Shown here piece after piece: positions 20,011 through 60,187 of a stretch of 64,000 nt of DNA (position 1 is its first letter; every line of letters begins with the position of its first letter). Both the position numbers and the translations under genes were made by a program. Under the pieces are notes generated by a model. That model saw only the letters and a list, made by a program, of their open reading frames with translations, ran no database searches and had not been told where the DNA came from. The stretch comes from Psammoneis japonica (taxonomy: Eukaryota). The stretch covers positions 1-64,000 of the forward strand of contig QPGO01000188.1 of NCBI GenBank assembly GCA_008632985.1. The letters run 5' to 3'.

Positions 20011-20240
20011 CGACACATTGAGCAGTCCAAACAGACTGCTGCTTCACTCAAAAACAGCATTTTTGGACATGTGCAAACAGCATTTTTCGCTTCACTTGTC
20101 CTCGAAGCACGAGGGAGAGAAACACCCTAGACACACCCCAGACATTTTCTGGGAATGCTCTGGAGGCTGTGCGCAGATGTTGCTGCATCGGCTTGGCTCC
20201 CTTGCTGGCATTGGTCAGAGCCCTCGTCGACACGAGGGAG

Positions 20241-20410
20241 TGTCACGTTCAGCTGGAGCTCGCAGGACAGATGGACAGACGGACGGATGGACAGACGGAG
20301 CTCATTCGCACTGACTCAGAGAGATGATGTCGAAGATTCTCTGACGCAGCTGGCTCGTGGACCACAGAACAGTCGCAAGCCTCTTTGGCTCACAACATCC
20401 ACACAAGACA
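20241..20410 (+). mobile_element. Copia 3' LTR
   Basis: Follows the PPT, has TGTC...GACA termini and is followed by TSD CCCTT. Confidence 0.92.
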
Positions 20411-22536: not shown

Positions 22537-22926
22537 GACGGGCTCCAGTCCTGGGTGGGACTCCGTGTGACATTGGGCCCGCAGAACTCTGCGTGCGAGC
22601 TCCGCAGTGCGAGAACTCAATCAATGGATGTGCTTGTCTTCAACATCAAATGAGCTGCCAAGTTTGTGGTGCAATTGTGCCTCTTGCCACTCGACGTTTC
22701 TGCAAGTGCGCCCGCCCTGCGCGATTCTCAAGACATTGTAGAATCGCGCTGCAACAAAAAATGTCAAAAGTTGTTGGACGGATCGCTCAACAAGTGCACT
22801 GCAAAATGACACAAAATGTCAAAAAAATCACGCAGAAATCTGCGCGCTCGACATGCGACGTGATTCAAAAAACTGTCGATGTCACAGTTCAGCAGCGCGA
22901 GGTCCCACCTGGACCTGGAACGCGTC
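22537..22926 (+). mobile_element. MITE, subfamily B (390 bp)
   Basis: GAC...GTC termini and the same TIRs as subfamily A. TSD CTTT on both sides. Confidence 0.9.
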
Positions 22927-23437: not shown

Positions 23438-23795
23438 TTTCAAGGAAAACAAACTTGTCATTTCAAGGAAAACAAACACATCCTTTCAAAGGAAAACAAA
23501 TGTGTCATTTGAAGGAAAACAAACGTGTCATTTTGAGGAAAACAAGCGTGTCTTTTCAAGGAAAACAAATGTGTCGTTTCAGGGAAAACAAACATGTGGT
23601 TTCAAGGAAAACAAGTGCGTCTTTTCAAGGAAAACAAACGTGTCTTTTCAAGGAAAACAAACCTGTCAAACAAACGTGTCATTTCAAGGAAAACAAGCAC
23701 GTCGTTTCAAGAAAAACAACCGTGTCGTTTCAACAAAAACAAACACGTTGTTTCAAGGAAAACAAGTGTTTTTTTTTAAGAAAAACAAACCTTTC
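23438..23795. repeat. 23-bp satellite TTTCAAGGAAAACAAACATGTCN
   Basis: Tandem units are directly visible. Confidence 0.92.
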
Positions 23796-23944
23796 ACATT
23801 TTGCATTTCGCATTTTCGCATTTTCGCATTTTCGCATTTTCACATTTTCACATTTTTGCTCCAAAGGCAGTCTTCAAATCAAGGACAATCTCTCCACATG
23901 TTGCAGGGGGGCACCAAAGGGGCACAGCCCACTGGCAGGGCGCT

Positions 23945-24337
23945 GACGCGTTCCAGCTCTAGGTGGGACCTTGCACTGCTGGGCTGTGACACAATTGTTT
24001 TTTGTCGTCCGTCGCATGTTTTGCGCGCACATTTCTGCGTGTTCTGTTGTAAAAAATTGTTCCACACTGCCTCTTTTGCGAAGCCAAAGGCTTTCTGTTT
24101 TCCACATTTGTGACAACAAAAATGCACTGGGTGTGTTGTTCAATGTCCAAAGAACACACCCGGGCAAACTGCAAACAACGTGCTTCAAATTTGGAGGAGA
24201 TGCGTTCGTAAAATTGCCTCTGTTTCTGTCAGCGATCATTCATGTTTTCATTGCTCAATGATTTTACTGCGGAGCTCGCACGTGGAATTCTGCGTGCCCA
24301 ATGTCACAAAAAGTCCCACCCAGGATTGGAACCCGTC
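23945..24337 (-). mobile_element. MITE, subfamily A (inverted)
   Basis: Reverse complement of 36205-36600. TSD CGCT. Confidence 0.9.
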
Positions 24338-25089: not shown

Positions 25090-26600
25090 TTTCAAGGAAA
25101 ACAAACGCGTCGTTTCAAGGAAAACAAACACGTCGTTTCAAGGAAAACAAACATGTCATTTGAAGGAAAACAAACGTGTCATTTCAAGGAAAACAAACAT
25201 GTCTTTTCAAGGAAAACAAACGTGTTGTTTCAGGGAAAACAAACACGTGGTTTCAAGGAAAACAAACACGTCTTTTCAAGGAAAACAAACCTGTCAAACA
25301 AACGTGTCATTTCAAGGAAAACAAGCATGTCGTTTCAAGAAAAACAAATGTGTCGTTTCAACAAAAACAAACACGTTGTTTCAAGGAAAACAAGTGTGTT
25401 TCTTTTGAGAAAGACAAACATGTCTTTTCAAGGAAAACAAACATGTCTTTTCAAGAAAAACAAACATGTCATTTCAAGGAAAACAAACATGTCTTTTCAA
25501 AGAAAACAAACATGTCGTTTCAAGGAAAACAAACGTGTCTTTGCAAGGAAAACAAACATGTCGTTTCAAGGAAAACAAGCGCGTCGTTTCAAGGAAATCA
25601 AACAGGAAACAAAATTGTGGTTTCAAGGAAAACAAGCACGTCATTTCAAGGAAAACAAACATGTTGTTTTGACAAGGAAAACAAACATGACGCGCTCCAG
25701 GTCTGGGTGGGACCTTGCACTGCTGAGCTGTGACATCGACAGTTTTTTGAATCGCGTCGCATGTCGCGCACGCACATTTCTACATGATTTTGGCAAAATT
25801 TTGCATGATTTCATGGCACAATTGTCAGGCCATCCATTGAACAACTTTTGACATTTTTTTCTTCTGCGCCATTCTCGAGTGTCTTAAGAATGGCGCAGGG
25901 CAGGCGCACTGTCCAAAACTTTGAGTGTGAACAGGGACAGATGTGCTGCAAACTTGGCCATTTTTTTGTGTTGAAGACAAATGTGTCCATTGGCCAGAGC
26001 ACGAACTGCAGAGCTTGCACGTGGAATTCTGCGGGGCAAATGTCACAAAAAGTCCCACCTGGGACTGGAACCCATCACATGTCTTTTCAAGAAAAACAAA
26101 CATGTCTTTTCAAGGAAAACAAGCATGTCGTTTCAAGGAAAACAAGCGTTTCAAGGAAAACAAACATGTTGTTTCAAGAAAAACAAACATGTCATTTCAA
26201 CGAAAACAAACATGTTGTTTCAAGGAAAACAAACATGTGTTTTTGAGAAAAACAAACATGTTGTTTCAAGGCAAACAAACACGTGTTTTTAAGAAAAAAC
26301 AAACTTTGCAAGGAAAACAAACGCGTCTTTTCAAGGCAAACAAGCACGTCTTTTCAAGGAAAACAAACGTGTCTTTTCAAGGAAAACAAACGTGTCATTT
26401 CAAGGAAAACAAGCACGTCATTTCAAGGAAAACAAACATGTTGTTTTGACGAAAACAAACACGTTGTTTCAATGAAACCAAACATGTTTTTTTAAGAAAA
26501 ACACACACGTCTTTTCAAGGAAAACAAACATGTCTTTTTAAGGAAAACAAACGTGTCATTTCAAGGAAAACAAACATGTCGTTTCAAGGAAAACAAACAC
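25090..26600. repeat. 23-bp satellite array, interrupted by a MITE and continuing at 29220-29270 after the Sola element
   Basis: Tandem TTTCAAGGAAAACAAAC(A/G)TGTC units. Confidence 0.92.
25689..26076 (-). mobile_element. MITE, subfamily B (inverted)
   Basis: Reverse-complement similarity to 40078-40466. TSD ACAT. Confidence 0.9.
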
Positions 26601-29219
26601 AAGACTGGCCAGACAGAAAGGCACACCCGTGCGCTCTCGAGCTCTCAAACTTTGTTTCAAGAAAAACGCGTTGAAAAGAATTTTGACCAACCACAAACAT
26701 TTCAAGTGTGCACATGCAAGACATTGCAGGTCATTCTGATGCTTTGCAGACAGCATTGCGCAATGTTCGCACTCCTGTCTGTAAGAAGCCCATTTGCTTC
26801 GGCAGTTTTCTTTTTCTCAGCGTTCCGTGCCTTCTGCTCGTCGCTCTCTGACTGCTTTTGCTTCCACTTCTCTCTCTTGCTTTTTGCAACTTGATTGAGC
26901 ACGTCGTCTCCAGGATGAGGGCACATCTTGTCTTTGTCTTCCTTGTCCAGAAGCGGCCGACACTTTGTGCGAAGCTCCACCTTCTTGATGTCCTTGATTC
27001 CTGGAGCTGTCAAGGCATGTGGTCTTGTTGTTTGAAGTCTTGCTTTCCCATCATCCATTGATTCACTCTTCCTCTTTTTGAGATCCTCGCTAACTTCTGG
27101 CTCGCCGTCCGCTGCTTTCATTGTCGCCACTGTGGGACTCAAAGAGTCTTTCACTTCAAAGCAGTGGTGCTTCGTAGCTGCACTGCACTTCTTGCAATTC
27201 TGATCAAAATGAGCTCCATGTCCCAAAAAATGCTCCTCCTTTGCTTCAACAACAGCGACATGCTCAGAAGCATCCAATGCTTTCAACAGTTTGCTGAAGG
27301 CGCCAATGTTCTTGTCGCAGTGAGTTTGCTTGAGACTGTTGAAGAGTCTGTCAAATGCATTCTTGGTGTGCCCTTTCACTGAAAACATGATGCAAACTTC
27401 TTTGCAATGTCCTTGTTCCACCAGGTGGGAAGCAAGTCTCAAAACAGTGTTGCTCTTGTTTTGCCTGACACAGTTGTCAAAAATCAGCACAAGCTTTCCG
27501 CCTGGACCCTTTTCAACATCCAACAACCCACCATCGTGCAAGTGTTTCATTGTGAGGGATGCAACATTGTCGCCTCCCTTTTGGCCAGCGCCCTTGTGGC
27601 AGACGCACGCGTGCAACAAATCCTTGCACTCACTTTCCGTCTCCTTTTTCCCGGCAGGATCCGCCACTCCAAAGAAATTGACAGTCAAAGGTGAGGAGCA
27701 GTGCGTCTCCCCTGGCTGATCGGCTCCAAGATGAGGCAACCCCCCATTTTGACAACAGCCACCAATCCTCACTCGAGTCTGCTGACTGTGTGGCGTGTTT
27801 GCAATTGCGTGTTGCACCGCTTCCACAGTGTGCTTGCTGGCTGGTTGTCGTTGCTTTTGGGCCCACTCGACATGTTCAGCCGCTTCCAGCATCTCTTTTT
27901 CCTGGGCCTCAATCTCTGCCATGCGTTCCTCATTGTCATCTTCATCATTGTCTTTGTTGTCACTCTCACCACCCTCATTTTCTTTCTCCTTTCTTGCTTT
28001 CATTTTGAAGCCATTCACGAATTTGCAACAGTCATCGCAGATGTCCCAAGTTGGTCTTCTCGCAACGATGTTGGGATGCTTGTCCTTCCAAAAAGTGCAA
28101 AGCTGTGCCCAGGAGCATGTCTTTTGTTGGGTTTTACCTGCAATTGGCGCGGGTTTGAGAAATTTGCCACGGTCGTTTGACTCAAGCCTCCGTCCATTGT
28201 CGTCTCCACATTGTTTGTGCAATCCGTGCTTTTTTGTGGTGGGAGGCAAATCGAACGTGTCTTCATCTCTCAAGCCGACTCCTGTTTCTTCTCTGACCAG
28301 TCTTGTTGCATGTGGTTCTGAAAGCTCTTTTGTTTCCTCAAAGAACGAATGCATCGCCGTGCAAATTTCGGGTGCCAACGTCTTGTTGGCAGATTGACCT
28401 TTCCCACCTTTGAGACCATGTGATGGAAGCATGTTGTTCTCTGCATGAGACTTTGCTCTCTTCCAAAACTTGCAGTTTTTGCCGAGTGATGCAAGGAGAG
28501 CATGGGAGCAGATGAGACTGTTCTCGACAGTCGCTGTGTCCTCGTTGTCAGATTGTAACAGCAGCAACACAAAACAGCAACAGTCGCCACTGTGTTTCTT
28601 GACAAAACAAGAGCACTTGATCCAGGATGACAAAGCAGTGTAAGTTTCTTTGTAGCTTGGTCTTTCAAAGCACACCAGGCAGTTGCCAAGCATCTTTGCG
28701 GTTCGGACGTCGTTGCTCTCCATCAACTGCAATCTCAGCTTCTTCAGACAGCTGCATTTCGATGGTTTCTTTTTGTTCACATCAGCGCAATGCTCATGAA
28801 ATGTTGGTGAATCATCAGGACTTGAAAGCCAATCACAGAACATTTTTGCAGCTTTGTTGTCCTTGATGTCTTTCATTGGTTTCGGCCGGATTTTTTCAAA
28901 AGAGAGATGAGCAAAGGATTTCAAAATTGAACTGAGAACAAAGGCATTAAGAAAGAACACACTTTCACATTCAATTGAGATGCAAACACACATTCGAGTG
29001 CAGCTGCATGATTTTCTCCACACATGAATTCCCGCCAAGCTTCAACGGTCAAAACCATCACAATGAAATCATTTGACCATCATCATTGTCAATGGCTTGC
29101 AGTTCGTTTAGAAACACTCAAAAGCGGAGATCAAGAGCTTTCAATTGGTGTCCACACCTGAAAATCAACCATGCAAGCCATTTCGAGCTCTGGGTGTGCC
29201 TTTCTGTCTGGCCATTCTC
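26601..29219 (-). mobile_element. Sola-type (probably Sola2-like) DNA transposon
   Basis: 28-bp TIRs AAGACTGGCCAGACAGAAAGGCACACCC and GGGTGTGCCTTTCTGTCTGGCCATTCTC. 4-bp TSD ACAC/ACAT inside the satellite. Encodes a transposase. Confidence 0.85.
26702..28876 (-). pseudogene. Sola-like DDD transposase: open frame but hypermutated
   Basis: DICDDC, QPGETHCSSPL, KGGDNVASL, IFDNCVRQNKSN, FSVKGHTKNAFDRLF. These match the DNCxGQN and GHx4DRxF pattern of Sola transposases. Confidence 0.8.
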
Positions 29220-31135: not shown

Positions 31136-31269
31136 GCAAACTCATGTCTTTTCAAGGACAACAAACGTGTCTTTTCAAGGAAAACAAACGTGTCATTTCA
31201 AAGGAAACAAACATGTTTTTTCAAGGAAAACAAACAACTCGGAGCACACCAACAAAGCCTTGATGACAG

Positions 31270-33219: not shown

Positions 33220-33900
33220 ACATGTGATTTCAAGGAAAACAAACATGTCTTTTTATGGAAAACAAACATGTTTTTTCAATGAAAACAAACATGTTGCTTC
33301 AAGGAAAACAAACACGTCATTTCAAGGAAAACAAACAACATGTCTTTTCAAGGAAAACAAACATGTCGTTTTCAGGAAAACAAACATGTCGTTTCAAGGA
33401 AAACAAACATGTCCTTTCAATGAAAACAAACACGTCTGTTCAAGGAAAACAAACATGTCTTTTCAAGGAATGCAAACATGTCTTTTCAAAGAAAACAAAC
33501 ATGTCTTTTCAAGGAAAACAAACATGTCTTTTCAAGGAAAACAAACATGTCGTTTCAAGAAAAACAAACATGTCTTTTCAAGGAAAACAAACGTGTCGTT
33601 TCAAGGAAAACAAACATGTCATTTCAAGGAAAACAAACATGTGTTTCAGGGAAAACAAACATGTGGTTTCTGGGGAAACAAACATGTGGTTTCAAGGCAA
33701 ACAAACATGTCATTTCAAAGAAAAATGTTGTTTTAACGAAAACAAACACGTTGTTTCAAGGAAACCAAACATGTTTTTTTAAGAAAAACAAGCGTGTCTT
33801 TTCAAGGAAAATGAACATGTCTTTTCAAGAAAAACAAACATGTCTTTCAAGGAAAACAAACATGTCTTTTTGAGGAAAACAAACATGTTTTTTCAAAGAA
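33220..33900. repeat. 23-bp satellite array (short array also at ~31130-31236)
   Basis: Tandem TTTCAAGGAAAACAAACATGTC units. Confidence 0.92.
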
Positions 33901-34149
33901 ACCAGAACATGTTGCAAAAAGATTCTGGGGGGCACGACAATGCAGGGAGGAGAGTGTCAAACATCAATCAACCTAAATGTGGTTTGCTTGTTGCCATCAC
34001 AAAATGCCAGGAGCGGTGGGGAAGGTTTGGAGGAGCTGTTGTTCTGTGCGGGAACACGGGTGCCAGCAAATGGTTGTCTGGTGAGCGAAAACAAAAAGTG
34101 CAGCACACGTTGAAAACCCACGTGAGTTTTGCACTGTCACAAAAAAAGC

Positions 34150-36204: not shown

Positions 36205-36600
36205 GACGGGTTCCAGTCCCAGGTGGGACTTTTTGTGACATTGGGCCCGCAGAATTCTGCGTGCGAGCTCCGCAGTGAAATTGTCAAGCAATGGACACAT
36301 GAATGATCGCCAACAGAAAAAGAGGCAATTTTGTGAACGCATCTCCTCCTCCACACTTGAAGCACATTCTTTACAGTGTGCCCGGGCATTTTTTTTAGAC
36401 ACCAAAGAACACACCCAGTGCATTTTTGTTGACGTGAGTGCAGACAACAGAAAGCCTTTGGCTTCGCAAAACAGGCAGTGTGGAACAATTTTTTGTGACA
36501 GAACACGCAGAAATGTGCGTGCAAAACATGCGACGGATGACAAAAAACAATCATGTCACAGTTCAGCAGTGCGAGGTCCCACCTGGAGCTGGAACACGTC
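36205..36600 (+). mobile_element. MITE, subfamily A (396 bp)
   Basis: GAC...GTC termini with TIRs. TSD AAGA. Confidence 0.92.
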
Positions 36601-38355: not shown

Positions 38356-39575
38356 GTGATGAAGCCAGGTCAAGCAAAATGGCTTCTGTGGCATGTCAAC
38401 AAAAGCGCGCATGGCATGGGAATGGCGTGTTGCGGGAGAGAGGTTGACGTGCTCACCCAACATGCTGTGACCTCCAACACACAGAGCCGAGGATGAGCAC
38501 ATCATGGGGGACAAACGGGCTTCCCCATGATGCAGAGACGGATTTCACCGATTTGTCCCCTCACATGCTGCATCTTGGCTTTTTTGTAAAATGCAACAAT
38601 GACAACGTGAGGGCAGCTGCGACAACAACTTGAGTCACAAGGGTGGCACAACTGCTGCCGCTGCCACCGCCATTTTTCCATTCATGATTTTGTGCCCTTG
38701 ACCACTTTGCACTTTTGCTCTTCCTGGTTTTTTGCCATTGGCCACTTTGTGCCCTTTGTGCCTTTTGCACTGCCCTTGGCCAATTTGTGCCCTTTGCAAC
38801 TTTGTGCCCTCAGCTGCCCTTTTGCACTCTCACACCATTCAGTGATTTTTTTTGTGCCCCAGGAAAGTTTGCACCCTTTGTGATTTTGTGCTCAACTCCC
38901 ATTTTTTGTCATTTTTGGTTTTGTGCCCTTGGCCATTTTGCACCTTTGAGATTTTGTGCCCTCAGTCATGTTGCGCAATTCTTGATTTTGTGCCCTTGAC
39001 CTTTTTGTGCCCTTGGCTGTTTTGTGCCCTTTCCTTTTTTTGTGCCCTTGAGCATTTTGTGCTTTTCATGGTTTTGTGCCCTTGGCCATTTTGCGCCCTT
39101 TGTGGCTTTGTGCCCTTGGCCATTTTGTGCCTTTTTTGGTTTTGGGCCCTCAGCCGCATTTGGTGCCCCTCATGATTTTGTGCCTTCAGCAATTTTTGGC
39201 CATTGTGGTTTTGCGCCCTTTGCCATTTTGGACCCTTTCTGATTTTTTGCCCTTGGCAGCTTTGAGCCCTCAGCCACCATTTTGCACCCTCAGTCATTTT
39301 GTGACCTCAGCAATTTTGTGCCCCTGCCTGGTTTGTGCCCTTTGTGATTTGGTGCCCTCAACAGACATTTTTTGTCCTTTTTGATTTTGTGCCCTTGGCC
39401 ATTTTGCTGGTCACAGCAGAGCTGCAGAACAACAAGAACCTGCCCGATGAAGAACGTGGAGCAAAGGAGAGAAAGTGCATGAGATGCCTGGGGCACTTCA
39501 TGGCAGGGAACTCCAAGAACGGAGATGCGGAAGGGAGCGCACCCAGGAAACGCAAGAGGGAGGATTTTTGCAGGA

Positions 39576-39835: not shown

Positions 39836-40077
39836 AGGAAGATTGTGGCAGAGCGTGACTGGAAAGTGGAGGAGGGGGGCAATGGGTTGGGGGATGAGGA
39901 AAGCCACGTGGTGGGTTGCACTGAGACACACGAGCTGGAGCCAACACCTGTTGGGCAGACAATGTGTGAAAAGTGGCAGTCACGTTTGTTGCAAATGACG
40001 TTGCAGACACAATCTAAATTGAATGACTGCATTCCACGGTGCCAACCGGAGAGCAATTGGGGAAGGGCGCAACACAA

Positions 40078-40466
40078 GACGGGTTCCAGTCCCAGGTGGG
40101 ACTTTTTGTGACATTTGACCCGTGGAATTCTACGTGCGAGCTCTGCAGTTCATGCTCTGGCCAATGGACATGTTTGTCTTCGACATGGAACAAACGGCCA
40201 AGTTTGCAGCACATGTGTCCATGTGCGCACTCAAAGTTTTGGATGACACGCCTGCCCTGCGCCATTCTTAAGACACTCGAGAATGGCGTAGAAGAAAAAA
40301 ATGTTAAAAGTTGTTGAATGGATCGCCTGACAATTGCACTGTAAAATGACACAAAATTTCGCCAAAATCACGTAGAAATGCACGTGCGCGACATGCGACG
40401 CGATTCAAAAAACTGTCGATGTCACAGTTCAGCAGTGCGAGGTCCCACCTAGACCTGGAACACGCC
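40078..40466 (+). mobile_element. MITE, subfamily B (retains many TpA)
   Basis: TIRs as in the other copies. TSD ACAA. Confidence 0.92.
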
Positions 40467-42619
40467 ACAAGTGGTGCCTTGGGAAACCAGTCAACCGATC
40501 TGTTGTCAGCCAGTTGTTGGATGTGTTTGAGTGGGTGCGCCAGAGTTTTTGGCCTGCTCACTTTCCACGCGGCCTGGTGCAACCCAAATCTGTGTAGATT
40601 CAGCACGCTTTGCCCTGCAGAACAGTTTTTGGAAGTGTTTTCTGGCTCGCGGCTCAAAATGACATGCAAAACAGCACGGACAATGGTGCTTTGCCAAATT
40701 GAAAAATGCGATTGTCTCTGAGGTTGGAACCTGGATGCTCTCAACGGAGTTCGGTGCATTGTGTCATCTTGTGCGAGATGAGCTCGAGAGCATCCAGGCT
40801 CACATGGGCAGATTGTGGCAAAAATTCTTGCTGAAGGCTCACATTGACAATGTCGCTTCTGTTGCATCATGACCAACCTCATGCACTGCCATTCGTGCTG
40901 TGTGTTTTGTTGAGGCTTCACGTGTTTGCAGCCGTTCAACTTGCATGCAATTTCTCTTTCTGCACTGTTCTTTTGTTCTGTGGGGTCTCTGTTGTCATGA
41001 GGCACCCCAGAGACACTTTTTCTTGTCAAGAATGTCATCTCTGAAGTGCGGTGGCCATGGCAATTCAATGATGAAGCCAAGTCACAGACACAGCATCAGG
41101 AAGAGTTCACAACAAACATGGTGACTTGGAGCTGTCATGTCTTGAGCTGGGTGAGCTCTCAAGAGCTCAAGTGCATCATCAGGCAGTTTTGACAACATTT
41201 CTTCCCCACTGTCCATGGTGATGCTGTGTTTGATTTGGCAGACCAGTGCATCATGGTGACTCTAAAGGCAAAGATTGCTTCTTTTGGCTGTGAGGCAGTT
41301 TACAACCTGGAAACATGTGACTTGTTTGCATGAAAGTGCGCGAGATGCCTGGAGCACTTCACGACAGGGAGCTCCAAGAACGGAGATGCGGAAGGGAGTG
41401 CACCCAGGAAACGCAAGAAGGAGGATTTTTGCAGGAAGATTGTGGCAGAGCATGACAGGAAAGCGGAGGAGGGGGGCAATGGGTCGGGGGATGAGGAGAG
41501 CCGCATGGTGGGTTGCGCTGAGACACATGGGCTGGAGCCAAAACCTGCTTGGCAGACAATGTGGGAAAAGCGGTGATGATGAGTTTAGCTTGGCAGACCA
41601 GTGCATCATGGTGACTCTAAAGGTGTGGATTGCTTCTTTTGGCTGTGGGGCAGTTTGCAGCCCAGAAACATGTGACTTGTTTGCACGAAAGTGAGCAAGA
41701 TGCCTGGAGCGCTTCACAGCAGGGAACTCCAAGAACGGAGATGTGGAAGGGAGTGCACCCAGGAAATGCAAGAGGGAGGATTTTTGCAGGAATCAAACAG
41801 TGACTGTGCAGTCATTGGTTTTGCATGGGAATCATGCAGAGTGCACGAGCAAAGTGGTCATTGTGACTTTTCTTCATGTAGAAGCCACGTGAAATTGCCA
41901 TACATTGTCACATGCGTGCACGAATGATGACCAAAAAACCAGTCACGCGACACACTTGCCGTGTCATGAGAATCAGCGAGCAATTGACACGGTGACTGGA
42001 GCCGTGACCAATTCCAGAATCAGAACACGGCAACCGTGGTGATTCCAGAAATCACCACAGTTGAAGTTCGCTGGCACAAAACACACATGGGACTTGCGTT
42101 GGGCAATCCATCAGGTTCTCAAATTTTCCCGACCCCTGCTCCCCGCCCCAAACTCCCCACAGCCAGACGCTTGGGGTCAGTGCATTGTGCACTCAGATTT
42201 ATGAGGTCCTGAAGATTGCAAACGACATTGTCATTGCCTGACATGTTCAGAATTACATGAGCGGGTAAATTGCATCACATGTGCGAGACGCACCTGTGCT
42301 TGTGTGCCACAATGCACGCCGTTGAACAACAAAATTCAAACATTCAATGGCGCAGAAGACAATGTTCGAAACACACCAGTGGCTCACTTTTTGGATCGTG
42401 GCGTTGTTTGCCGTCTAGCAAGTTAAAACACTGGCAACACTAAAATGCTGGCAATGCCAACATGCCAGCGACACTGTCGCATCATCCTTCCCCATTTTGT
42501 CTAAAAGAACATTGTCCTGCATCATGCCACACCCGCCGCGGCTCCTCTTCTTGTCCCTGAAGTCTTGAATTTGCTCCTCCAAAAAATGAACTCGCCCCGA
42601 GAGTTGTGTTTCTTGGAGC

Positions 42620-45489: not shown

Positions 45490-47570
45490 GAAGATTGTGG
45501 CAGAGCGTGAAAGGAAAGTGGAGGAGGGGGGCAATGGGTTGGGGGATGAGGAAAGCCGCGTGGCGGGTTGCACTGAGACACACGAGCTGGAGCCAACACC
45601 TGTTTGGCTGAAAAATGCGATCGTCTCTGAGGTTGGAACCTGGGCACTCTCAACGGAATTTGGTGCGTCACATCATTTTCGCATTTTTGCATTTTCGCAT
45701 TGTGGCATTTTCGCATTTTCGCATTTTCACATTTTCGCGAAGCTCCAAAGGCGGTCTTCAAATCGAGAACAATCTTGCCACATGTTGCAGGGGGGCACTG
45801 AAGGGACACAGCCCGGCTGGCGGGGCGCTGATCACAAACAAGATTTGTGGTGCAAGTGTTTGGCGCTGGGGGCACCTTTGAGATTTTGTGCCCTCAGCCA
45901 TGTTGCGCAATTCTTGATTTTGTGCCCTTGACCTTTTTGTGCCCTTGGCTGTTTTGCGCCCTTTCCTTTTTTTTGCCCTTGAGCACTTTGCCCCATCTGG
46001 CGGTTTTGTGCCCTTGGCCATTTTGCACCCTTTGTGACTTTGTGCCCTTGGCCATTTTGTGCCTTTTTTGGTTTTGGGCCCTCAGCCGCATTTGGTGCCC
46101 CTCATGATTTTGTGCCTTCAGCAATTTTTGGCCATTGGTTTTGTGCCCTTTGCCACCTTGGACCCTTTCTGATTTGTTGCCCTTGGCAGCTTTGTTCCCT
46201 CAGCCGCCATTTTGCACCCTCAGTCATTTTGTGACCTCAGCAATTTTGTGCCCCTGCCTGGTTTGTGCTCTTTGTGATTTGGCGCCCTCAACAGACTTTT
46301 TTTGTGCTTTTAGATTTTGTGCCCTTGGCCATTTTGCTGGTCACGACAGAGCTGCAGAACAACAACAACCTGCCCGACAAAGAACGTGGGGCAAAGGAGA
46401 GAAAGTGCATGAGGTGCCTGGAGCACTTCATGGCAGGGAACTCCAAGAACGGAGATGCGGAAGGGAGTGCACCCAGGAAATGCAAGAGGGAGGAATTTTG
46501 CAGGAAGATTGTGGCAGAGCGTGACAGGAAAGTGGAGGAGGGGGGCAATGGGTTTGGGGGGCGAGGAAAGCCACGTGGGGGGTTGGACCCAGTCACATGA
46601 GCTGGAGCCAACACCTGTTTGGCAGACAATGTGTGAAAAGTGGCAGACACATTTGTCACAAATGACATTGCAGACACAATCTAAATTGAGTGACTGCATT
46701 CCACGGCGCCAACCAGAGAGCAGTTGGGGAAGGGCACAACACAAGCGGCGCTTTGGGAAACCAGTCAACCGATCTGTTGTCAGTCAGTTGTTGAATGTGT
46801 TTGAGTGGGCGCACTGGAGTTTTTGGCCCGCTCACTTTCTACGTGGCCTGGAACAACCCAAGTCTGTGCAGACTCAGTGCGTTTTGCCCTGCAGAACAGT
46901 TTTTGGGAGTGTTCTCTGGCTCGCGGCTCAAAATGACGTGCAAAATGGCGCGGATGATGGCGTTTTGCCAAATTGAAAAATGCGATCATCTCTGAGGTCG
47001 GAACCTGGATGCTCTCAACGGAGTTTGGCACTGTCACATCATCTTCTGCGAAGACAAGCTTGAGAACATCCAGGCTCACATGGGCAGATCATGGCAAAAA
47101 TTCTTGCTGAAGGTTCGCATTGACAACGTCACTTCTGTTGCATCACAACCAACCTCATGCGTTGCCATTCGTGCTGTGTGTTTTGTCAAGGCTTCACATG
47201 TTTGCAGCCGTTCAATTTGCGCACAATTTCTCTTTCTGCATTGTTCTTTTGTTCTGCAGGGTCTCTGTTGTCGTGAGGTGTCCCAGAGACACTTTTTCTT
47301 GTCAAGAATGTCATTTCTGAAGTGCGATGGCCACGGCAATTCAACGACGAAGCCAAGTCACAGACACAGCATCAGGAAGAGTTCGCGACAAACATGGTGA
47401 CTTGGAGCTGTGATGTCTTGAGCTGGATGAGCTCTCAAGAGCTCAAACACATCATCAGGCAGTTTTGACAACATTTCTCCCCGACTGTTCATGGTGGCTC
47501 TAAAGGCAAAGATTGCTTCTTTTGGCTGTGGGGCAGTGCACAACCTGGAAACATGTGACTTGTTTGCACT
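45490..47570. repeat. Modular macro-repeat copy
   Basis: Module order is (CGCATTTT)n, GTGCCCTT array, GA-rich module, downstream module. Confidence 0.85.
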
Positions 47571-47789: not shown

Positions 47790-47951
47790 CTTCAGTGTGG
47801 ACGACGCACAGATGCAAGGGTGCGCCACAAAATGACTCAAAATGTCAAAAAAACACGTGGAAATCTGCGCGCGCGACATGCGACGTGATTCAAAAAACTG
47901 TCGATGTCACAGCTCAGCAGTGCGAGGTCCCACCTGGACCTGGAACGCGTC
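47790..47951 (+). mobile_element. Right end of a truncated subfamily B MITE
   Basis: ...GAGGTCCCACCTGGACCTGGAACGCGTC matches the end of 22537-22926. The left boundary is approximate. Confidence 0.8.
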
Positions 47952-49245
47952 TGAGGTCAAACGAGATTTAACCAGGCCAGTTTCAAGTCAAAAAAGGTGT
48001 TTGCTCTGAGCCAAGCAAGGTGTGGGTCAAACCCTTTGAGGTCAAATGAGATTTTGCTCGAGCCATTTGTGGTCAAACATTGTTTTGATCTCTTGGCAAA
48101 ACAAGGTGTGGGTTGAACCGTTTGGGGTCAAATGTGATTTTGCTTGGGGTCAAACGAGATTTGGCTGTTTGAGGTCAAACTCATTTTGAGCTCTTTGCTC
48201 TGTCCCAAGTGAGGTTGGATCAAACCATTTGAGGTCAAATTGGATTTTGCTTGAGCCGTTTGAGGTCAAATTCATTTTGAGCTCTTGGCAAAACAAGGTG
48301 CAGTTTGATCTGTTTGGGGTCAAACAAGATTTTGCTTGCACCGTTTGAGGTCAAATGAGATTTGGCCAGGCTTGTTTCAAGTCAAAAAAACTTTTTTCTC
48401 TGGGCCAAGCAAGGTTGGGTCATGCCGTTTGAGGTCAAATGAGATTTTTTGCTTGAGCCGTTTGAAGCCAAACTGATTTTGAGCTCTTGGCAAACAAGGC
48501 GCGGTTTGATCTGTTTGAGGTCAAACTCAAACAAGATTTGGCCAGGCTTGTTTTAAGTGAAAAAAGGTTTTTTGCTCTGGGCCAAGCAAGGTGTGGGTCA
48601 AACCATTTGGGGTCAAATGAGAGCTGGCTGGGCTTGTTTGGGGTCAAACCCATTTTGAGCACTTGGCAAAATGGGGTTTGGATTGAACCGTTTGAGGTCA
48701 AATGAGATTTTGCTTGAACCATTTGAGGTCAAATGAGATTTGTCCAGGCTTGTTTCAAGCAAAAAAAGGTTTAAAGTCGAAAAAAGCTTTTTGCTCTGGG
48801 CCAAGCAAGGTGTGGGTCAAACCGTTTGAGGTCAAATGAGAGCTGGCTGGGCATGTTTGGGGTCAAACTTGTTTTGAGCACTTGGAAAAACAAGGTGTGG
48901 ATTGACCCATTTGAGGTCAAACAAGATTTTGCTTGAAACGTTTCAGGTCAAACAAGATTTGGTCAGGCTTGTTTCAAGTCAAACACATTGTGAGCACTTG
49001 GCAAAACATGGTGTGGGTTGAACTGTTTGAGGTCAAATGAGATTTTGCTTGAACCATTTGAGGTCAAACGAGATTTGTCCAGGCTTGTTTCAAGCAAAAA
49101 AGGTTTAAAGTCAAAAAAAGCATTTTGCTCTGGGCCAAGCAAGGTGTGGGTCAAACCGTTTGAGGTCAAATGAGAGCTGGCTGGGCATGTTTGGGGTCAA
49201 ACTTGTTTTGAGCACTTGGAAAAACAATGTTTGGGTTGAACCGTT
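47952..49245. repeat. Satellite built on TTTGAGGTCAAA subunits (~30-45 bp) with higher-order structure
   Basis: Recurrent TTTGAGGTCAAATGAGATTTTGCTTGAACCG, GCCAGGCTTGTTTCAAGTCAAA and GGCCAAGCAAGGTGTGG. Confidence 0.92.
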
Positions 49246-50050
49246 TTTTCTGAGTGCTTGGTCATAAAGAGGGTTGACAATTCGTGTGTTGCACAAATTG
49301 CGGGACTGTTTTGCACAGAGTGTGTGCATGCGTGACAGCAAGACACACCACGTCTTCAGTCCCTGTGCGGAACCAATCATGCTCGGCACTGCATGCATCC
49401 TGCGCAGTCCCTTCATGCAAGGTGAGTCACGTGCGCAATGGCCAGTTGTGCCAGTCTCAGTTGTGTGGAACTCCCGCAGCCCTTCGTGGGTCTCATGCTG
49501 AGAGTCACGTTTCCCAATGCGTGCTTCTGTGGGATCAGTGTTGCTGCGGACAGCCTGCAGATGCAGGAAAGCAGCATCATCGGCACCTGTGGTGGGGATG
49601 CCTGCTGCACTTGCCCCTGTGACAAGGTCGCACGAGTGACAGATGAGGGTCCTGCTGCTGGAAAAGGACATTTTTTGTTGTGTCCAAAAAACCAGCACAC
49701 CTTCTCACACACGAAGGATGACATTTTCATTGACTTGAGCAACTGCAGCTGGCCCTGCATGACAATTGTCGGTGCCGCTGTTTGTCCGTTGTTCACGCTC
49801 AATTCTCACGCTTGTCTGTCAAGCGGAGTGTTTTCTGATTTCTGTCCAAGACATGCCTCCACTTGTTGCAAAAGGCAACGGACAATCTTGCATCACGTCC
49901 AAAGACCAACTGCATGGAGTTGCCTTGACAGTGGTGTGCACAGTTGCACGGCAGAAAGTTTCAGTCCAAGGGTCGTCTTCATCTGGCTCCATGTTCTTGC
50001 ACTCGGAGCACAGGGGCACTGTGCCAAGAACGCACATGCTGGCATGGCAG
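49246..50050 (-). pseudogene. Unknown decayed coding-like sequence; uninterrupted paralog of the LINE target
   Basis: 49260-49610 aligns to 51620-51829 plus 60047-60185 (DSPCMKGLRRM). Confidence 0.45.
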
Positions 50051-51904
50051 CATCAAGTTTCCAATTGTCTGATGTGCGCGTTCCACGATGGAGTTCGACT
50101 GGGTAAAAAAAAAAAGAAAAAAAGGTGGCACATCGACACGCGTGCAGAGTTGATCAGAAAAAAAGGTGGCGCATCGACACGCGTGCAGAGTTGATCAGGC
50201 TCTGCATTCTGTCATGGCAACACCCATTGTGTCTTTGACAGGCAATGGACAAAGCAAAAAAATTTTGCTCACATCACATTCTTTCACCTTCACGGAAAGA
50301 ATGCATCAAATTTGCATTTGAATGGCGGGCTTTTCGTCACAAAGCTCTTTCCATGCCAGCTCAGGTTATTTTTTGAAGTTTGCATGCCTTTTTGGGCATT
50401 TTTGTGCCTTTTTCCGGGCATTTTTACAATTTTTACAATTTTTGTGGCCAAAGTGTCACATCCTCACATCCGGCCTTTCAAAACGGCATTCTTTCTGTCC
50501 GTTTGTTGAGTTTGTCAAAGTCAGTTAAACCAAGTGGTCTGCAGCCCATGAGCGGTCAAGTGCTCTCAGTTTTTAGAGTGCACTGACTCTTGCACGTGTG
50601 GTCATTCATCACACAAATTGGGGTGTTCCGTTTCACCCTTCGAGCGTTTCGTCACATGACAGCTCGTTCAGCATTTTTTTTACATGCACAGTGCTGTAGA
50701 GGAGAGCATGTGTGTGCTCCTGTGTGCACGCTTTTTCTTGCATTGCAGCAAGGGTTTTTCCATTGAACCCTTCGAGCGTCATGTCAATTGACACCTCGCA
50801 TCCAAACATCAGTGCATGCAGTCATTCTTGCTGCACGTCATTCTTTGTGCAGGCCTTTCGTCTGACGCACCATTCGGCCTTTTTCATTTTACGCAGCAGC
50901 CAGCATCTTCGCTGCTGTGCGGTCATTCTCACATTTGATTGAGTGTCAACAAATGACATGTGCGCGATGCTGCGCATGGAATTGCGCATGTCCAGCATGC
51001 ACGAGCATTGGCTCTAGGCCATTTGCAGGCCTTGCAGAAATGTCTTGTCCACTCTGCGTCCCTGAGACGCAAAAAACATGCCACAGGCCGTGTCACAAGT
51101 CATTTTCTGTTGACACTTTGTCTCAGGCCGTTTGGCACATCTAAACTGCTGTTTTCGTGCAGTTTGCAGTGCTGCCTTCTTGGCAGTCATCGGTGTCAGT
51201 GTTAGAGCAAGATTCTCAAATCGCTTGCAAAATGCGACATCTGCAGTTTTTGTGTCAAGCGCATTGAATCTTGGAGTTCTCTTCTCGCACTGACATGCAC
51301 GAGGTCTGTTGTTTGACGAGATCAATTTTCTCATCGTTTGGCAGTGCATGCGACGCATCACCGCCATTGTGAATCGCTGAAAGTTCTGAAAAAAACACTC
51401 ACACGCGTTCTTGCCACACGATCGCCATTTTGGCGACTTTTTTGCTTTCTGCTGTCCTCCTGAGGAAACAGTCATAGAGAACAGGAAATTGACATTCTGT
51501 TGCATCCCACTCTTCTCTGCAGAACGGCTGACAGTCATGGTCAGTTGAACAAAGGGTGTTCTTGCACTCACTGGGAGCAATGTTGCTGTGCCCCATGCAA
51601 AAATGGGGTCCAAGCACTCAGTCACAAAGAGGGTTGACAACTCGTGTGTTGCGCAAATTGTGAGACTGATTTGCGCAGAGTGCGCACATGCATGACAGCA
51701 AGACATGCCGTGTCCTCAGTCCCTGCACGGAACCAATCATGCTCGGCAATGCGCACATCCTGCGCAGTCCCTTCATGCAAGGTGAGTCATGCACGCGATG
51801 GCCAGTCGCACTGGTCTCAGTCGTGTGGACAATTCTACGATTGCCAGCGTTGAACATGCCCACGTGTTTTCAGCACCAGGCTCCCCGTAGAACAGCCGAT
51901 CACC

Positions 51905-53756
51905 ATGGCGTCTCCTTCCATCGTTGATGGCAGCCATGCCCCTCTCCCATCCACAACGCCACCATGGCAGATGACATTGCCGTCGATCAGACTTCTCTTA
52001 AGTCGTCTTCTAAACCGAAAGAGCGTCAGTTCGAAGAGATTGCTCTTCGCTTCGAAATTCGTGGCCCTGCAGCGACATGCAAGCCGATGACTCTTGTCAC
52101 CGCCCATTTGCAAGTCTTGCAGCAGATTCTTTTCACGCATCATAAAGACGTGCAAATCCTTGACAACCACAACAACCGAATCACGCAAATCAATGTGGCT
52201 GATTGGATTTCCTCCCTTCAGCACGAACGTCACTTCGTTGTCTCCACCACTCGCAGTGGTGAAAAACGCCCGGTCACCCATCGCTTGTGTCATTGCATTC
52301 TTGCAAAGTTGCCGCTTCGCGAAATTCGCTCTCATCCTCATGTTCAAAGCATTTTGGATCTGAATGACATGGGCATGAAACGACACGCCTGGAATGAATC
52401 AGTGATTGATGCGGCGACACCGGCCCATTGCATTGCTGCCGCTACGAAACACACTCCAGTCGACAACGCTGCCAAAAAGTTTCTTGGAGATTTGGGTGAA
52501 TTCAAGACTGAGATGCCAAAGTTTCGTCTGGCACCTACGTGATCCGAGCCGACAATGACAAACTCGCCACTCCCATTCGCACAACGACTTTTGCCATTGA
52601 GGTTCAAAATGATGAGCATTGCACTGCCGGGAGAGTCTTGTTGTGCGCATCTAACAAACTCCCGACCCATGTCGTGATGGCCAAGACCTGTTGCCTCTCT
52701 CCCTTGGCCTTCTACAATGCTGTCAAAACTCAAGCCCGCTGCAATGAAAACACACACATCGTCCCGCTCTTGTGTGCTTCCCCAGACATGATGTTCTGCT
52801 TCGAACAAAATGTCAGGGCCTTGAAAGGCGTGCAGGACATTTGCGCCTCTAACTCCGCCGACGGGAGGTACAATGTTCTTGTCAATCGAGTGGATTTCAA
52901 GACAGCACGTGCCGCAATTTCCGCGTGTGTTGTGAATCTCATTCCAGATCTACCGGAAGAATCTTGCCCGACTCCTCCCTTCCCAGATCATCCTCAAGTC
53001 TCAGGCGTTTTTGACGAACCATCGGAGACCAGCAAATCCATCGTCTCTGCAAGCATTCGCAGTCTCGAATCCCCAACCTTTTCGGACGTTTCTCCTTTGA
53101 CAGACACTCACACTCCCAGTGCGCATCATCACCCTCCATCGCAATCTCATCCTGGTCGCGGACATGCAGGACGAGGATTCCCCGGTCGAGGTCCTGCGCG
53201 AGGTTCTCCGGTTCCACCTCAGATCTTCACCCCCCTTTCCTCCCAATCTCCATCGAAACTTGGTTGTGCTGGATGCCCTGGCATGCCGTCTCCCCAATTG
53301 TCTTATGCTCAAGCTACTCAATCTACATCGAGCTCCTCTCTTGCTTCAGCTCAGATGGCGGAAGCACAACAGACGTCATCTCAGATGCAACACAAGAATG
53401 ATCAGGCCCCAGCCGAACTCCGCCAACAGCATTCCAAGGACATGGAAGCTTTGAATGACACGTTCAACAAACAACACACTCAAGACATGGCCGCACTTCA
53501 GTCACAATGCTCCCAGCAACTGGCCGCCATGCAGGACCAAATGAACCAAATGGTTGAACTCCTTCAAGCAAGTCAACCGTCTCAGAGCTCTGCCAGAAAA
53601 CGCCCCAACCACATGGAAACTCCCGAGCGCCCTGGGGATGACAAAGACAGGGAATCGGATTTTTGGGCAGGGGTTGGATCTCGCCGCCTCCACCCCCTCA
53701 AGAAATTAGGCGTCCTCCCGATGTTGTCACTCGGCTCCACTCACCTCTCACTTTAA
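51905..53756 (+). pseudogene. LINE ORF1 (frameshifted) with a Gln-rich coiled-coil
   Basis: ORFs 51905-52090, 51964-52542 and 52539-53756 lie upstream of the APE-RT ORF and inside the TSDs. Confidence 0.7.
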
Positions 53757-53868
53757 CTTCCATTTTTCGTCGGACCTCTGGATGTCGGCCTTTCTCCTTT
53801 CAACCGAACCTCAAGTTAATGCAGTGCTCTAAGCCTCAGTCTTCTCTTCGGAGGAGCACGGCCCAACC

Positions 53869-56800
53869 ATGAGCAGCACGATTTCGACTGATGATCCCTC
53901 TCTCGCATGGCAGCAAATTCTCGACGGACGCAGCTGTCATCCTCCTGCTGATCGCCGGATCGATTTTTCTCGCCTCAAGACCAATGAACCTGTGGGCAAT
54001 GCACTTCGACCCAAGCTTCCGCATCACACACGTCTGTGCGCCTTTAACGCCAATGGTTGCAAGTTCGACAAGCGCGGCGGGGACATAAATGAGTGCTGTC
54101 AAATTGCTTCGGAAATCCAAGCCGACGTCATCGGCATCTCCGAAGTGTGTCTGGACACTGCCCAATTTGATGTTCTCTCTGTTTGCCATTCTGCTGTCTC
54201 CAAATCTCTGCACCGCGGGCGATCCACTTTCTCGACCAGCTCTGCCACCTTCACTGCTCAACACAAACCAGGTGGTGTGGCTTTGTTGTCTTGCAATTCG
54301 ATGTCAGCACGTTTTCGGACTCAAGAATCAGACCCACTTGGTCGGTGGTCTGTTCAAGTTTTCGACGGCAGGAACGGACGCCAGGTGATGTTTGTCTCTT
54401 GCTGTCGAGTTTGCGCTAAAAACCAACAACACCCGGGGAAAACAACAGCTTGTGCTCAGCAAATGTCTCTTCTCCGACAACAAGGCCGTCAGATCCTCGA
54501 CCCCAGGAAAGCCTTTTGTGCCAACTTATCCCGTGTTTTGCAGGACTTCACGGCAGAACCGCATGGGGAGGTGATCATCTTTGGCAATTTTAACACTGAT
54601 TTCAACTTCGACACAGACTCTTTGGCTGCTGTTGCACAACGTTTTGATTTGTCCGACGTTCTGTTTGACATTGTGGGCGACAACGACTTCGCTGCATGCA
54701 CGAGGGGTTCTAAGCGCCTCGACCACGTGCTTGCCTCACCTGGTGCTCTCGCTGCGGCACGGTTCGGTGGATGCGAAGCTTTTGGTTATAGAGTTGAGTC
54801 TGATCATCGTGCTTGCTTTGTGGATTTTGACACGGTGGCCCTTTTTGGTGATCCCACCGTCGATCTACCTGAGGCATCTTTCTGGGATCTTCAGGCAACA
54901 TCCAAACCTCAGATCACCACTTGTCTTCAAGCCATCGGCCCTGTGATTCAGAGCCGCTCAGCATTGGAGAGGTCACATCAGTTGATTGACCTCGAAACTC
55001 CGAATCATGCGTTGGCAGAACGCCCAGACCGTGATCTTACCCAGTTCTCCCTCGCTGCCGCCAAGAAATGCCGCTCTCACCGCAAACCAGACTGGTCGGT
55101 AGAACTGGCAGATTTGAGACATGGGGTGCATGTCTTTTCACGCCTCGCATCAATGATGCGGACAAAATTAGACTGTGTCTCACAGATTCGGTCGATTCAG
55201 GATAAACTCAGTGGATCCTTTTCTATTCCGGAGACTTTGCAAGAGTGTCAACAAGAGTTGCGTGCTGCTCAGGAAGACTGCAAGCGCTTGGCTGCCGACA
55301 GCGTGGTCCACCGTGAACGGGAGACATCAGAAAAGACAGCAGCACTCGATTTAGAAAACACCAAGGCTTCCCGCAAGCAGGCCACTGTGTTGCGCAACAT
55401 CCGCAAGGCAGAAGAAATGAAGAAATTGTTTGAGAAGATAGATTCTTGTCGCACCCAGAAGGACACTGGCATGCAGAGTGTACAAGTTCCTCGCAATCCC
55501 TCTGTTCCTCCGAAAGAATGTCAAGACTGGGTTGCTGTCGATGCTCCGGAAGAAGTGGCAACTGCTCTCTGTCAACGGAATCAGAAACACTTTGGTCAAG
55601 CACACGGCACACCCCCAACAGTCCCTCCACTGTCGGTGGACCTCGGTTGTGAAGGTGATGCGATCATGGCGGATCTCATTCTCAATGGCGAGCATGACAC
55701 GTCTGCTTTGAATGAAGCAACAGCTCTTTTCATCAAACACTTGCGACAACGGTCACCAGCGTCAGTGCCAAACCTCCTTTCTGCCTCAGACCTCGAAGGG
55801 AAAATAAAACGTTGGACAGAAACTGCCACTGCGTCCACACATTCTGGACTCCATCTTGGTCATTGGAAGGCAATGTGTGCTCCTCATTGATTTTCTGAGG
55901 CTGCGGATTCAGAAGGCAATCCCACTGTTGATCATGAGGCCCTCGATGAAGTTCAACACACCCTCATTCAAATCAGGTTGAATTTGCTAAATTGCGCTCT
56001 CCGCTGGGGGTGTTCGTTTCACCGTTGGCAAGATGTCGTAAATGTCATGATTTTCAAAGAGCCGGGCAACAACAAGATTCATTGTCTTCGAGTCATCCAC
56101 ACACACGAAGCCGACTTTCAATTGATCTTGAGTGTCAAGTGGCGTGCTCCAGCTCAAAACATGGAGCAACGTCGACCACACAATTCTGGGATCTACGGCA
56201 CTCGCGCTTTCTTAAATGCCAACACTCCCGTGCACCTTGAAGAACTCATGCTGGAGATCAGCAGAGCTGCACGCAAGTCTGCTGTTCACAGTGATGACGA
56301 TTGTACTTCGTGCTGCGACAGAAATGTCCCTGCTTTGGTGGCAATTGAAAGCCGCAGCAATGGCATGCCCAAAGAAGTTGCCCAGGTTGCCAGTTCGACT
56401 CTTCACAAGGCTCGACACTGGTTGCGTGCGGTGCTTGGCCTGTCTCAAGGTTCTCACTCCCATTCCGATGACTTTCCGATTTACGGTGCTGGACAGGGCA
56501 GTGGAAACTCCCCGTTCTACTGGAGCCAAATCTGCAACAGTTTGTTTCAGATTTTCGATCAACGTGCACACGGTGCCTGTTTCGAGACCCCTGACCGCTC
56601 TCTTTCTCTGCAGATGTTCAATCGTGGATGCGTGGATGATGCACCCAAACAGGTGAATGCCTTTTGTGCATCTCCTCAACCTTGCATTCTGGAACTGGCT
56701 CTAAAGATGCAGGAGGACAATCAGCTGTGGTGTGACCTTTTGAGTGCAGCTGGACACAAGTTAGAACTGCCCAAGTGCTCCTTCCACGCAATCAAGTGGA

Positions 56801-59800: not shown

Positions 59801-59900
59801 CTTTAAATCGAGCATGCGGGAAGCCAAACGGTTGGCTGCACGAGGCACCAGAACCATTGCAAGTTACTTTGGCACGGCATCACCCTCGGGTGATGCCGAT
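53869..59900 (+). pseudogene. LINE ORF2: AP endonuclease, RT, RNase H and zinc knuckle
   Basis: APE: FNANG, IGISEV, GNFN, LDHVL, SDHR. RT: DCTSCCDR, GQGSGNSP, GCVDD. RNase H: SDGS, SSCRAEACG, HCDN, WVKGHQD, NMRADRLA. Knuckle: CTHC..DHILRC. Stop at 55888-55890 and a frameshifting duplication. Confidence 0.92.
57476..57767 (+). repeat. 146-bp tandem duplication in LINE ORF2
   Basis: 57476-57621 and 57622-57767 are nearly identical. Confidence 0.92.
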
Positions 59901-60187
59901 CTTGGCCAATTGCCATTTGCTCCTGCCGCACTGACTGTGTGCTGGGAGTGTGGGTTAGCTTGTTGCCGGAGTTGCAGGGTGGAAGTGCAGCAGCACTTAA
60001 AATGTGGAAGTTTGGTTTTGTTTTGTTTTGGTCTCAGTCATGTGGAGCTCCCGCAGCCCTTCGAGGGTCTCATGCTGAGAGTCGCGTTTCCTGATGCATG
60101 CTTCTGCGGGATCAGCGTCACTGTGGACAGCCTGCAGATGCAGGAAAGCAGCATCATCGGCGGCTGCGGCAGGGATGCCTGCTGCAG

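Follow-up and report, generated by a model that had tools for sequence, protein, structure and literature searches.

Copies of a MITE in a TA-depleted 64-kb window have probably lost TA independently after insertion, as part of a region-wide process

Seven copies of a MITE lie in the 64-kb stretch of DNA analyzed here (the window, positions 1 to 64,000), and at homologous sites they read TA, CA, or TG. The best account of this pattern is that the copies came from a source with a normal TA content and that each was hit independently after insertion by TA-to-TG/CA mutation acting across the region; we give this reading a probability of roughly 0.8. Comparison of the copies shows that TA was lost, as far as aligned sequences can tell, after the copies had separated and in DNA that should need neither transcription nor reverse transcription. 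All MITE tests were made on the seven window copies together with summary tables from sequencing-run contigs.

The copy under study occupies positions 40079 to 40466 on the plus strand (388 bp, 7 TA) and is a MITE, a non-autonomous class II transposon, on the basis of its TIRs, its TSD, the empty sites, its short length, and its multiple copies. The TIRs, of ~25 bp each, lie at about 40079 to 40103 and 40441 to 40466, and they are bordered by a perfect 5-bp duplication, ACAAG, at 40074 to 40078 and 40467 to 40471. Four window paralogues of the host repeat, at 46700 to 46790 (plus strand) and at about 9022 to 9112, 20839 to 20929, and 10290 to 10376, are uninterrupted at the exact insertion point, where the empty sites have a single ACAAG or ACGGG. 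Contigs of the sequencing run X1 also bridge position 40072 to position 40466, i.e., without the MITE. The empty paralogous sites show that this MITE is younger than the repeat that it interrupts. The TIR core, GGTCCCACCYRG, allowing at most one mismatch, was found in 13 arms, 12 from the six full copies and one a 3' arm. No further TIR arms that would mark an autonomous partner with the same termini were present in the 64-kb window, and no MITE-like termini were seen around the nearby DUF7869 open reading frame (ORF). The full copies are 387 to 395 bp long, and three copies have perfect 5-bp TSDs (ACAAG, AAGAG, and CTTTG). They form two subfamilies, A and B, with similar ends and diverged interiors. 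As a single strand, the copy at 40079 adopts a long hairpin fold (-70.4 kcal/mol, z -3.49). A total of 3,352 X1 contigs matched a 1.2-kb stretch containing the MITE, with peak depth over the 3' part of the element; this stretch includes other repeats, so the number is not a copy number.

The closest relative of the copy at 40079 lies at 25689 to 26075 on the minus strand (88% identical, 2 TA), within an array of a 23-bp satellite. A subfamily A copy is found at 22538 to 22926 (plus strand, 1 TA, TSD CTTTG), and subfamily B copies are found at 36206 to 36600 (plus strand, 2 TA, TSD AAGAG), 11666 to 12060 (plus strand, 2 TA), and 23945 to 24336 (minus strand, 4 TA). The 3' fragment at 47829 to 47951 (plus strand) has a single TA. 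The preliminary description had noted that the copy at 40079 keeps many TAs, and its seven indeed compare with one to four in each of the six others.

Two sites had been singled out in that description as showing all three states. At the first, CACGTAGAAAT at 40369 to 40379 (TA at 40373) has a CA form, CACGCAGAAAT, at 22829 and a TG form, CACGTGGAAAT, at 47854; the fourth state, CG, occurs in CACGCGGAAAT at 52917 on the minus strand, and there are two more CA copies. The degenerate pattern of this site, CACG[TA]GAAAT, had six matches where 0.16 were expected, a number not seen in any of 100 shuffles. At the second site, in the TIR, CCCACCTAGA at 40444 to 40453 (TA at 40450) has a CA form, CCCACCCAGA, at 12038 and a TG form, CCCACCTGGA, at 36578; the pattern CCCACC[TA]GA was matched seven times against 0.40 expected. 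With both arms counted, the TIR site reads TA in 2, CA in 4, and TG in 7 of the 13 arms. TA is kept there by the copy at 23945, and the 3' fragment reads TG at both sites. All six coordinates were exact, and BLAST against the window and a MAFFT alignment place the sites at homologous positions in the seven copies, which confirms that TA, CA, and TG all occur at homologous MITE sites. The same alignment contains 28 dinucleotide columns that vary solely within the set TA, CA, TG, and CG.

Depletion of TA extends over the whole window, where 212 TA are left in 64,000 bases and about 95% of TA are gone. The observed/expected ratio is 0.05 for TA, 1.59 for CA, 1.54 for TG, and 0.64 for CG, compared with 1.34 for AA, 1.41 for TT, and 0.78 for AT. 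Every 2-kb bin has between 0 and 20 TA, and the TA ratio is 0.03 in the self-repeated 45% of the window and 0.07 in the remainder. The G+C content is 43 to 54%. The CA-TG skew per 2 kb was only -0.16 to +0.21, and a strongly strand-asymmetric process is ruled out by this small skew. The earlier claim that non-coding DNA transposons are targeted therefore stands in part: the MITE copies did lose TA after separating, but the loss is not specific to them. Since all 64 kb are TA depleted, repeat or not, what is targeted may be the region, or its chromatin, and not the MITE itself.

The surviving TAs seldom precede T: on both strands together, the 3' neighbor was A in 181, G in 119, C in 93, and T in 31 of 424 cases, and ATAT was absent. 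A flanking-base preference of the process is possible. However, the 3'-neighbor bias failed to predict the outcome at site 40395, and we therefore claim no context rule.

The window contains two Copia-type copies (RVT_2), a LINE-like endonuclease ORF, a DUF7869 transposase-like ORF, tandem arrays, and a satellite. The 23-bp satellite (TTTCAAGGAAAACAAACACGTCG) forms arrays at 25090 to 25689, 26077 to 26599, 33220 to 33912, 23438 to 23790, and 31145 to 31235, and the MITE copy at 25689 to 26075 splits one such array. Arrays with 8-bp (TCGCATTT) and 17/34-bp (TTTTGTGCCCTTGGCC) units recur with the composite repeat that hosts the MITE, at 9273 to 9338, 22137 to 22245, 23792 to 23856, 45674 to 45738, 38919 to 39406, and other places. 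A diverged large satellite with periods of 31, 85, 116, and 201 bp occupies 47940 to 49246 and 60187 to 62780, at the 3' end of the window, and is nearly free of TA. The LINE-like region (50001 to 60000) has ~9 TA per kb, compared with 0 to 3.5 per kb in most other bins, and may be the youngest insert. For its endonuclease ORF (Exo_endo_phos, 53869 to 55890), a word-based search found no homologue at an E value of ≤0.001 among 8,000 scored candidates. No Pfam domain was found at an E value of ≤0.1 in 8 of 13 further window ORFs, and the window had no matches to RNA families in Rfam.

The near absence of TAA and TAG stops accounts for the 47 window ORFs of at least 200 amino acids, which lie on both strands, with several overlapping, and these ORFs are not evidence of genes. 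Their Tyr content is 0 to 0.7%, and His and Cys are raised. The ORF that overlaps the MITE (40304 to 41080, minus strand) is one of many such stop-poor frames. TA-poor regions can thus be expected to carry many long spurious ORFs and almost no Tyr codons, with proteins that search tools miss.

The direction of the change was examined with protein outgroups. The DUF7869 transposase-like ORF (26702 to 29038, minus strand) was compared with 10 outside homologues at columns with Tyr in at least 60% of them. All 14 conserved Tyr were lost from the ORF, which has Cys (TGY) at 6, His (CAY) at 4, and other residues at 4 of these columns, while conserved His was retained at 5 of 6 and conserved Cys at 7 of 8 columns. 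In the Atlas, the neighbors of this ORF are animal DUF7869 clusters. The Copia-type reverse transcriptase (RT) was polarized in the same way with 150 outside homologues, using ORF copies at 6914 to 7804 and 18731 to 19621, both on the plus strand. Its seven Tyr columns held Cys (four), His (two), and Ser (one) and no Tyr, and conserved His was retained at 2 of 2 and Cys at 2 of 3 columns. For both proteins pooled, none of 21 conserved Tyr columns still reads Tyr, with 10 reading Cys (TGY) and 6 reading His (CAY), whereas 16 of 19 conserved His/Cys were kept. Conserved Tyr read as Cys or His against outside homologues indicates that TAY became TGY or CAY. The two Copia RT ORFs are 95% identical and have the same His/Cys at conserved Tyr positions, indicating that they were duplicated after the mutation. 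One conserved Tyr is TGC in the first copy and CGC in the second, where a site that was once TA has undergone a further transition.

The ancestral state of the MITE was addressed by likelihood, using a four-state chain (TA, CA, TG, and CG) on 116 dinucleotide columns of the seven copies. The tree was approximated as two stars plus one joining branch, with lengths fixed from 108 to 230 background columns. A homogeneous model gave an lnL of -388.87, with a root TA share of 0, TA gain at 3.25×, and loss at 40×. With decay left free on the internal branch, the lnL was -374.95; internal decay went to 0, terminal decay was 24.6× background per direction, TA gain was 0.43×, and the root TA share was 0.25. 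Forcing root TA to 0 under free internal decay lowered the lnL to -382.87 (2ΔlnL of 15.8), and the cost with shorter central branches was 17.0 and 18.3. TA at the root had a posterior of 0.99 for the site at 40373 and of 1.00 for the one at 40450. The alignment and ancestral-state reconstruction that the preliminary description had called for, run here on the seven window copies, thus puts root TA at 0.99 or higher at both of its sites. Model discrimination came only from the joint 116-column analysis. On 38 well-aligned terminal columns of six taxa, a TA-regenerating model without ancestral TA had a marginally better lnL of -184.09, against -186.13 for a model with no gain, with TA gain at 1.9× background, and for subfamily B by itself (three-taxon likelihood) ancestral TA brought a 2ΔlnL of just 0.25; neither of these smaller analyses discriminated.

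The homologues of surviving TA sites agree with an ancestral TA. At least two homologues were available for 47 of the 212 TA sites, and these showed both CA and TG at 20 sites, CA only at 11, TG only at 7, and other states at 9, with CG at 1. Among sites with two to eight homologues, both CA and TG were seen at 11 of 34 TA sites, compared with 237 of 2,296 CA/TG sites (P = 0.0005), and CG was among the homologues at 0 of 34 TA sites, compared with 434 of 2,296 CA/TG sites. In the closest MITE pair, 45 columns differed, including 9 CA/TG doubles, 5 TA/CA or TA/TG differences, 10 CG/YR differences, 5 other transitions, and 7 transversions. Window-wide, there were 1,700 CA/TG double differences, compared with 55 to 307 for other transition doubles. 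The nested MITE also has more TA than the older DNA around it, with a TA:(CA+TG) ratio of 7:72 compared with 5:402 in 2 kb of flanking DNA (odds ratio 7.8, P = 0.0009).

The claim that TA is ancestral is thus borne out by four comparisons that are independent of one another: the Tyr codons against outgroups, the MITE likelihood, the homologue spectrum, and the presence of a TA-rich MITE in TA-poor flanks. TA as the ancestral state at the two MITE sites is supported by these comparisons, which show, for the sequences aligned here, an apparent direction of TA lost and not gained, with CA and TG outcomes roughly equal and decay on terminal branches. TA retention does not simply track age, as only 2 TA are left in the copy at 36206, whose background branch is the shortest.

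Some observations run against TA loss. At 40395 and 40415, the window copies uniformly read TG where other genomic copies read TA, and such uniformity would be improbable under fully independent 1:1 resolution. Within the arrays of the 23-bp satellite, the homologues of the remaining TA sites are strongly skewed (e.g., CA 35, TA 4, and TG 3), which fits either amplification of the array after mutation or a derived TA. The run contigs, in turn, speak for TA loss: MITE sites that are TG or CA in all window copies were TA in contigs of X2 and X3 and in 14 to 32% of the X1 depth. These variants come from the 40 variable places with the best support out of 186, a set that includes none of the seven positions at which the copy at 40079 has TA. 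The contigs of X2 and X3, both of them small runs from the same sample, cover 40341 to 40464 of the window and have TA at, e.g., 40381, 40395, and 40415, and also in their overhangs.

An ancestor with CA or TG is the strongest competitor, although an unlikely one. TA would then be made by C-to-T or G-to-A change and quickly destroyed again, so that traffic runs from CA through TA to TG and the TA seen today is derived. The best homogeneous model takes just this form, and the idea survives on the 38 terminal columns and in subfamily B. The mean of 2.7 TA per copy is also near the flux equilibrium of about 3.9 (worked by hand from the 38-column rates, with some 72 CA+TG sites in each copy), and the DUF7869 ORF has Cys in place of a conserved His at 1 of its 14 His/Cys columns, so some CA-TG traffic does take place. 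On the 116 columns, however, this flux falls 13.9 lnL units below the terminal-decay model for one parameter, and excluding ancestral TA costs a 2ΔlnL of 15.8 to 18.3 even with free internal decay. It predicts that TA is as dense around the MITE as within it, contrary to the odds ratio of 7.8, and no extra mixing at the homologues of TA sites, where mixing was 32% compared with 10% at CA/TG sites. It also sits poorly with the loss of 21 of 21 conserved Tyr while 16 of 19 His/Cys were kept. Classical CpG decay, in which deamination of 5-methylcytosine would turn CG into TG or CA and a further transition would give TA, is very improbable as the origin of the TA-bearing sites. CpG is clearly unstable in the window, where aligned pairs number 1,471 for CG-CG, 1,833 for CG-TG, and 1,469 for CG-CA, and by arithmetic on these window pair counts a CG-only model could supply roughly 930 of the 1,700 CA/TG doubles. 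Recent duplicates tell the same story: of 58 events in the Copia pair (97% identical; 6852 to 9272 and 18669 to 21089), 29 are CG/TG or CG/CA changes, as are 43 of 64 in a tandem duplicate (12362 to 13911 and 13912 to 15458), and several MITE columns read CG/CA/TG. However, TA is aligned with CG in only 1 of 408 TA-involving pairs, and CG is among the homologues at 0 of 34 and 1 of 47 TA sites. The CG-to-TG-to-TA route, given in the preliminary description as an example of a derived TA that would overturn its claim, thus fails. By the same arithmetic, CG ancestors account for about 1 of the 9 CA/TG doubles in the closest MITE pair, and CpG decay cannot explain Tyr changing to Cys or His. With a ratio of 0.64 for CG and 0.05 for TA, it is TA that is the exhausted state. 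A CpG-decay origin of the TA-bearing sites is refuted, and the process stands only as a parallel one at other columns: some CA/TG polymorphic columns appear to descend from CG, and the TA-bearing columns do not. The recent duplicates suggest heavy decay at methylated CpG where TA is already exhausted.

Removal of TA by selection (avoidance of TATA, of stop codons, or of UA-cleaving RNases) or by GC-biased gene conversion is the least credible of the alternatives. Genomes commonly show a mild under-representation of TA, but selection cannot maintain a 95% depletion on each copy across dead MITEs, satellites, and broken ORFs, and biased conversion would not be specific to TA, as AA (1.34) and TT (1.41) are enriched and AT stands at 0.78. 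Both were rejected on composition. Also improbable, though somewhat less so than CpG decay, is an artefact in which a modified thymine or adenine in TA is read as C or G while the true sequence is still TA. X1, the sole run matching the stretch (60% of sampled words), may be the source data of the assembly itself, and miscalls would likewise turn Tyr into His or Cys. Among the runs listed as matching the stretch, none was of RNA. However, identical 11-mers give TA, CA, or TG depending on the copy, unlike a context-driven miscall, and 480 X1 contigs match the stretch at 99% identity or more. The conserved Tyr whose codon differs between the two Copia copies (CGC against TGC) also speaks against miscalling, and the same change is reported de novo in Illumina-sequenced Bigelowiella natans lines (bioRxiv 10.64898/2026.01.13.699255).

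Under the favored reading of independent TA loss after insertion, the source copies of the MITE would have carried ordinary numbers of TA and would have inserted into a silent, repeat-filled region. There, each copy would independently have undergone 5'-TA-3' to TG mutation, reading as CA when the opposite strand was hit, and independent hits per copy would leave homologous sites as CA, as TG, or, where no hit has yet occurred, as TA. Across the 64 kb, this process would have stripped about 95% of TA, including that of the Copia and LINE-like elements, a DNA-transposase ORF, the satellites, and sequence that is single copy within the window. The most likely chemistry is enzymatic deamination of DNA adenine preceded by T, where the resulting hypoxanthine would pair with C and give an A:T-to-G:C change. 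The tRNA A34 deaminases (TadA and ADAT2/3) always face U33-A34, and a T-A preference would be natural for an enzyme derived from them. Oxidized or otherwise modified thymine mispairing with G gives the same pattern and is indistinguishable from deamination by sequence alone. The second process, CpG to TpG/CpA, runs in parallel and would become dominant once TA is exhausted.

A broader interpretation is possible, and we offer it tentatively, as the less probable side of an even chance. A DNA adenine-deamination defense directed at regions or chromatin might hit any DNA in silent territory, including MITEs and satellites that are never RNA, and spare the transposing source lineage and copies elsewhere; together with 5-methylcytosine deamination, it might produce DNA that is rich in CA and TG, poor in stops, and free of Tyr codons. 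Spared copies would then account for the TA-retaining versions in X2 and X3 and in a part of the X1 depth.

Several known systems resemble this process in part. Fungal RIP changes C to T mainly at CpA, creating TpA and AT-rich DNA. The likeness lies in the dinucleotide-context erosion of repeated or foreign DNA and in active sources that can be inferred only from decayed copies. However, the direction is opposite, as TpA is destroyed and G+C is raised here: in place of the TpA excess and AT-rich repeats of RIP, the window has a TA ratio of 0.05 and a G+C content of 43 to 54%. As to the dependence of RIP on duplication, sequence that is single copy within the window is depleted too. CpG decay of methylated transposons likewise converts a palindromic dinucleotide to TG or CA, independently in each copy, and is active in the window, but its substrate is CG and not TA, and it leaves the TA columns and the Tyr-to-Cys/His changes unexplained. 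APOBEC and ADAR are deaminases that hypermutate retroelements with a nearest-neighbor preference, a 5' U being favored by ADAR (Discussion of bioRxiv 10.64898/2026.01.13.699255). In contrast to the present process, they act on reverse-transcription intermediates or double-stranded RNA, and a cut-and-paste MITE and satellites without an obligatory RNA or cDNA stage need a process at the DNA level.

The closest system is the TpA-to-TpG/CpA hypermutation of integrated viral DNA in B. natans (Mettrop et al., bioRxiv 10.64898/2026.01.13.699255). In mutation-accumulation lines of that alga, two integrated viral regions, an NCLDV and a virophage insertion, gained 231 mutations de novo, of which 230 were A to G or T to C, all at TpA, and a DNA adenine deaminase was proposed (bioRxiv 10.64898/2026.01.13.699255). 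The same preprint reports TpA-depleted clusters, with transposon Pfam domains enriched among the depleted coding sequences, and its main text describes transposons as "potentially" targeted, with no mention of MITEs or non-coding elements. The target (TpA), the products (TpG and CpA), and the clustered TA depletion with CA and TG enrichment are alike in both cases, and the transposon domains depleted there have counterparts in the Copia RT, the LINE endonuclease, and the transposase-like ORF depleted here. The B. natans depletion is far milder, with a Rho of 0.45 for the NCLDV and a cluster cut-off of 0.43 (bioRxiv 10.64898/2026.01.13.699255), compared with 0.05 over 64 kb in the present window. 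The evidence there is experimental and de novo, whereas ours is comparative, and the parallel CpG decay active here does not figure in the Results and Discussion of the preprint.

Judged by titles and abstracts, the papers listed in literature searches include no other report of such a TpA process, and a mutational defense opposite to RIP (A:T to G:C at TpA) had, to our knowledge, previously been described in this one 2026 preprint, for integrated viruses only. What is new here is a signature near completion, in 64 kb of transposons and satellites that have lost 95% of their TA, and decay on terminal branches with TA kept in the source lineage. In addition, a non-coding DNA transposon lost TA after insertion, indicating that no RNA or reverse-transcription step is required. 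The present process is therefore an extension of the B. natans type of hypermutation to a new target class, with far more complete erosion, and not a new system. If the organism is not B. natans and a defense acting on silent territory is indeed at work, the system would be wider than one alga.
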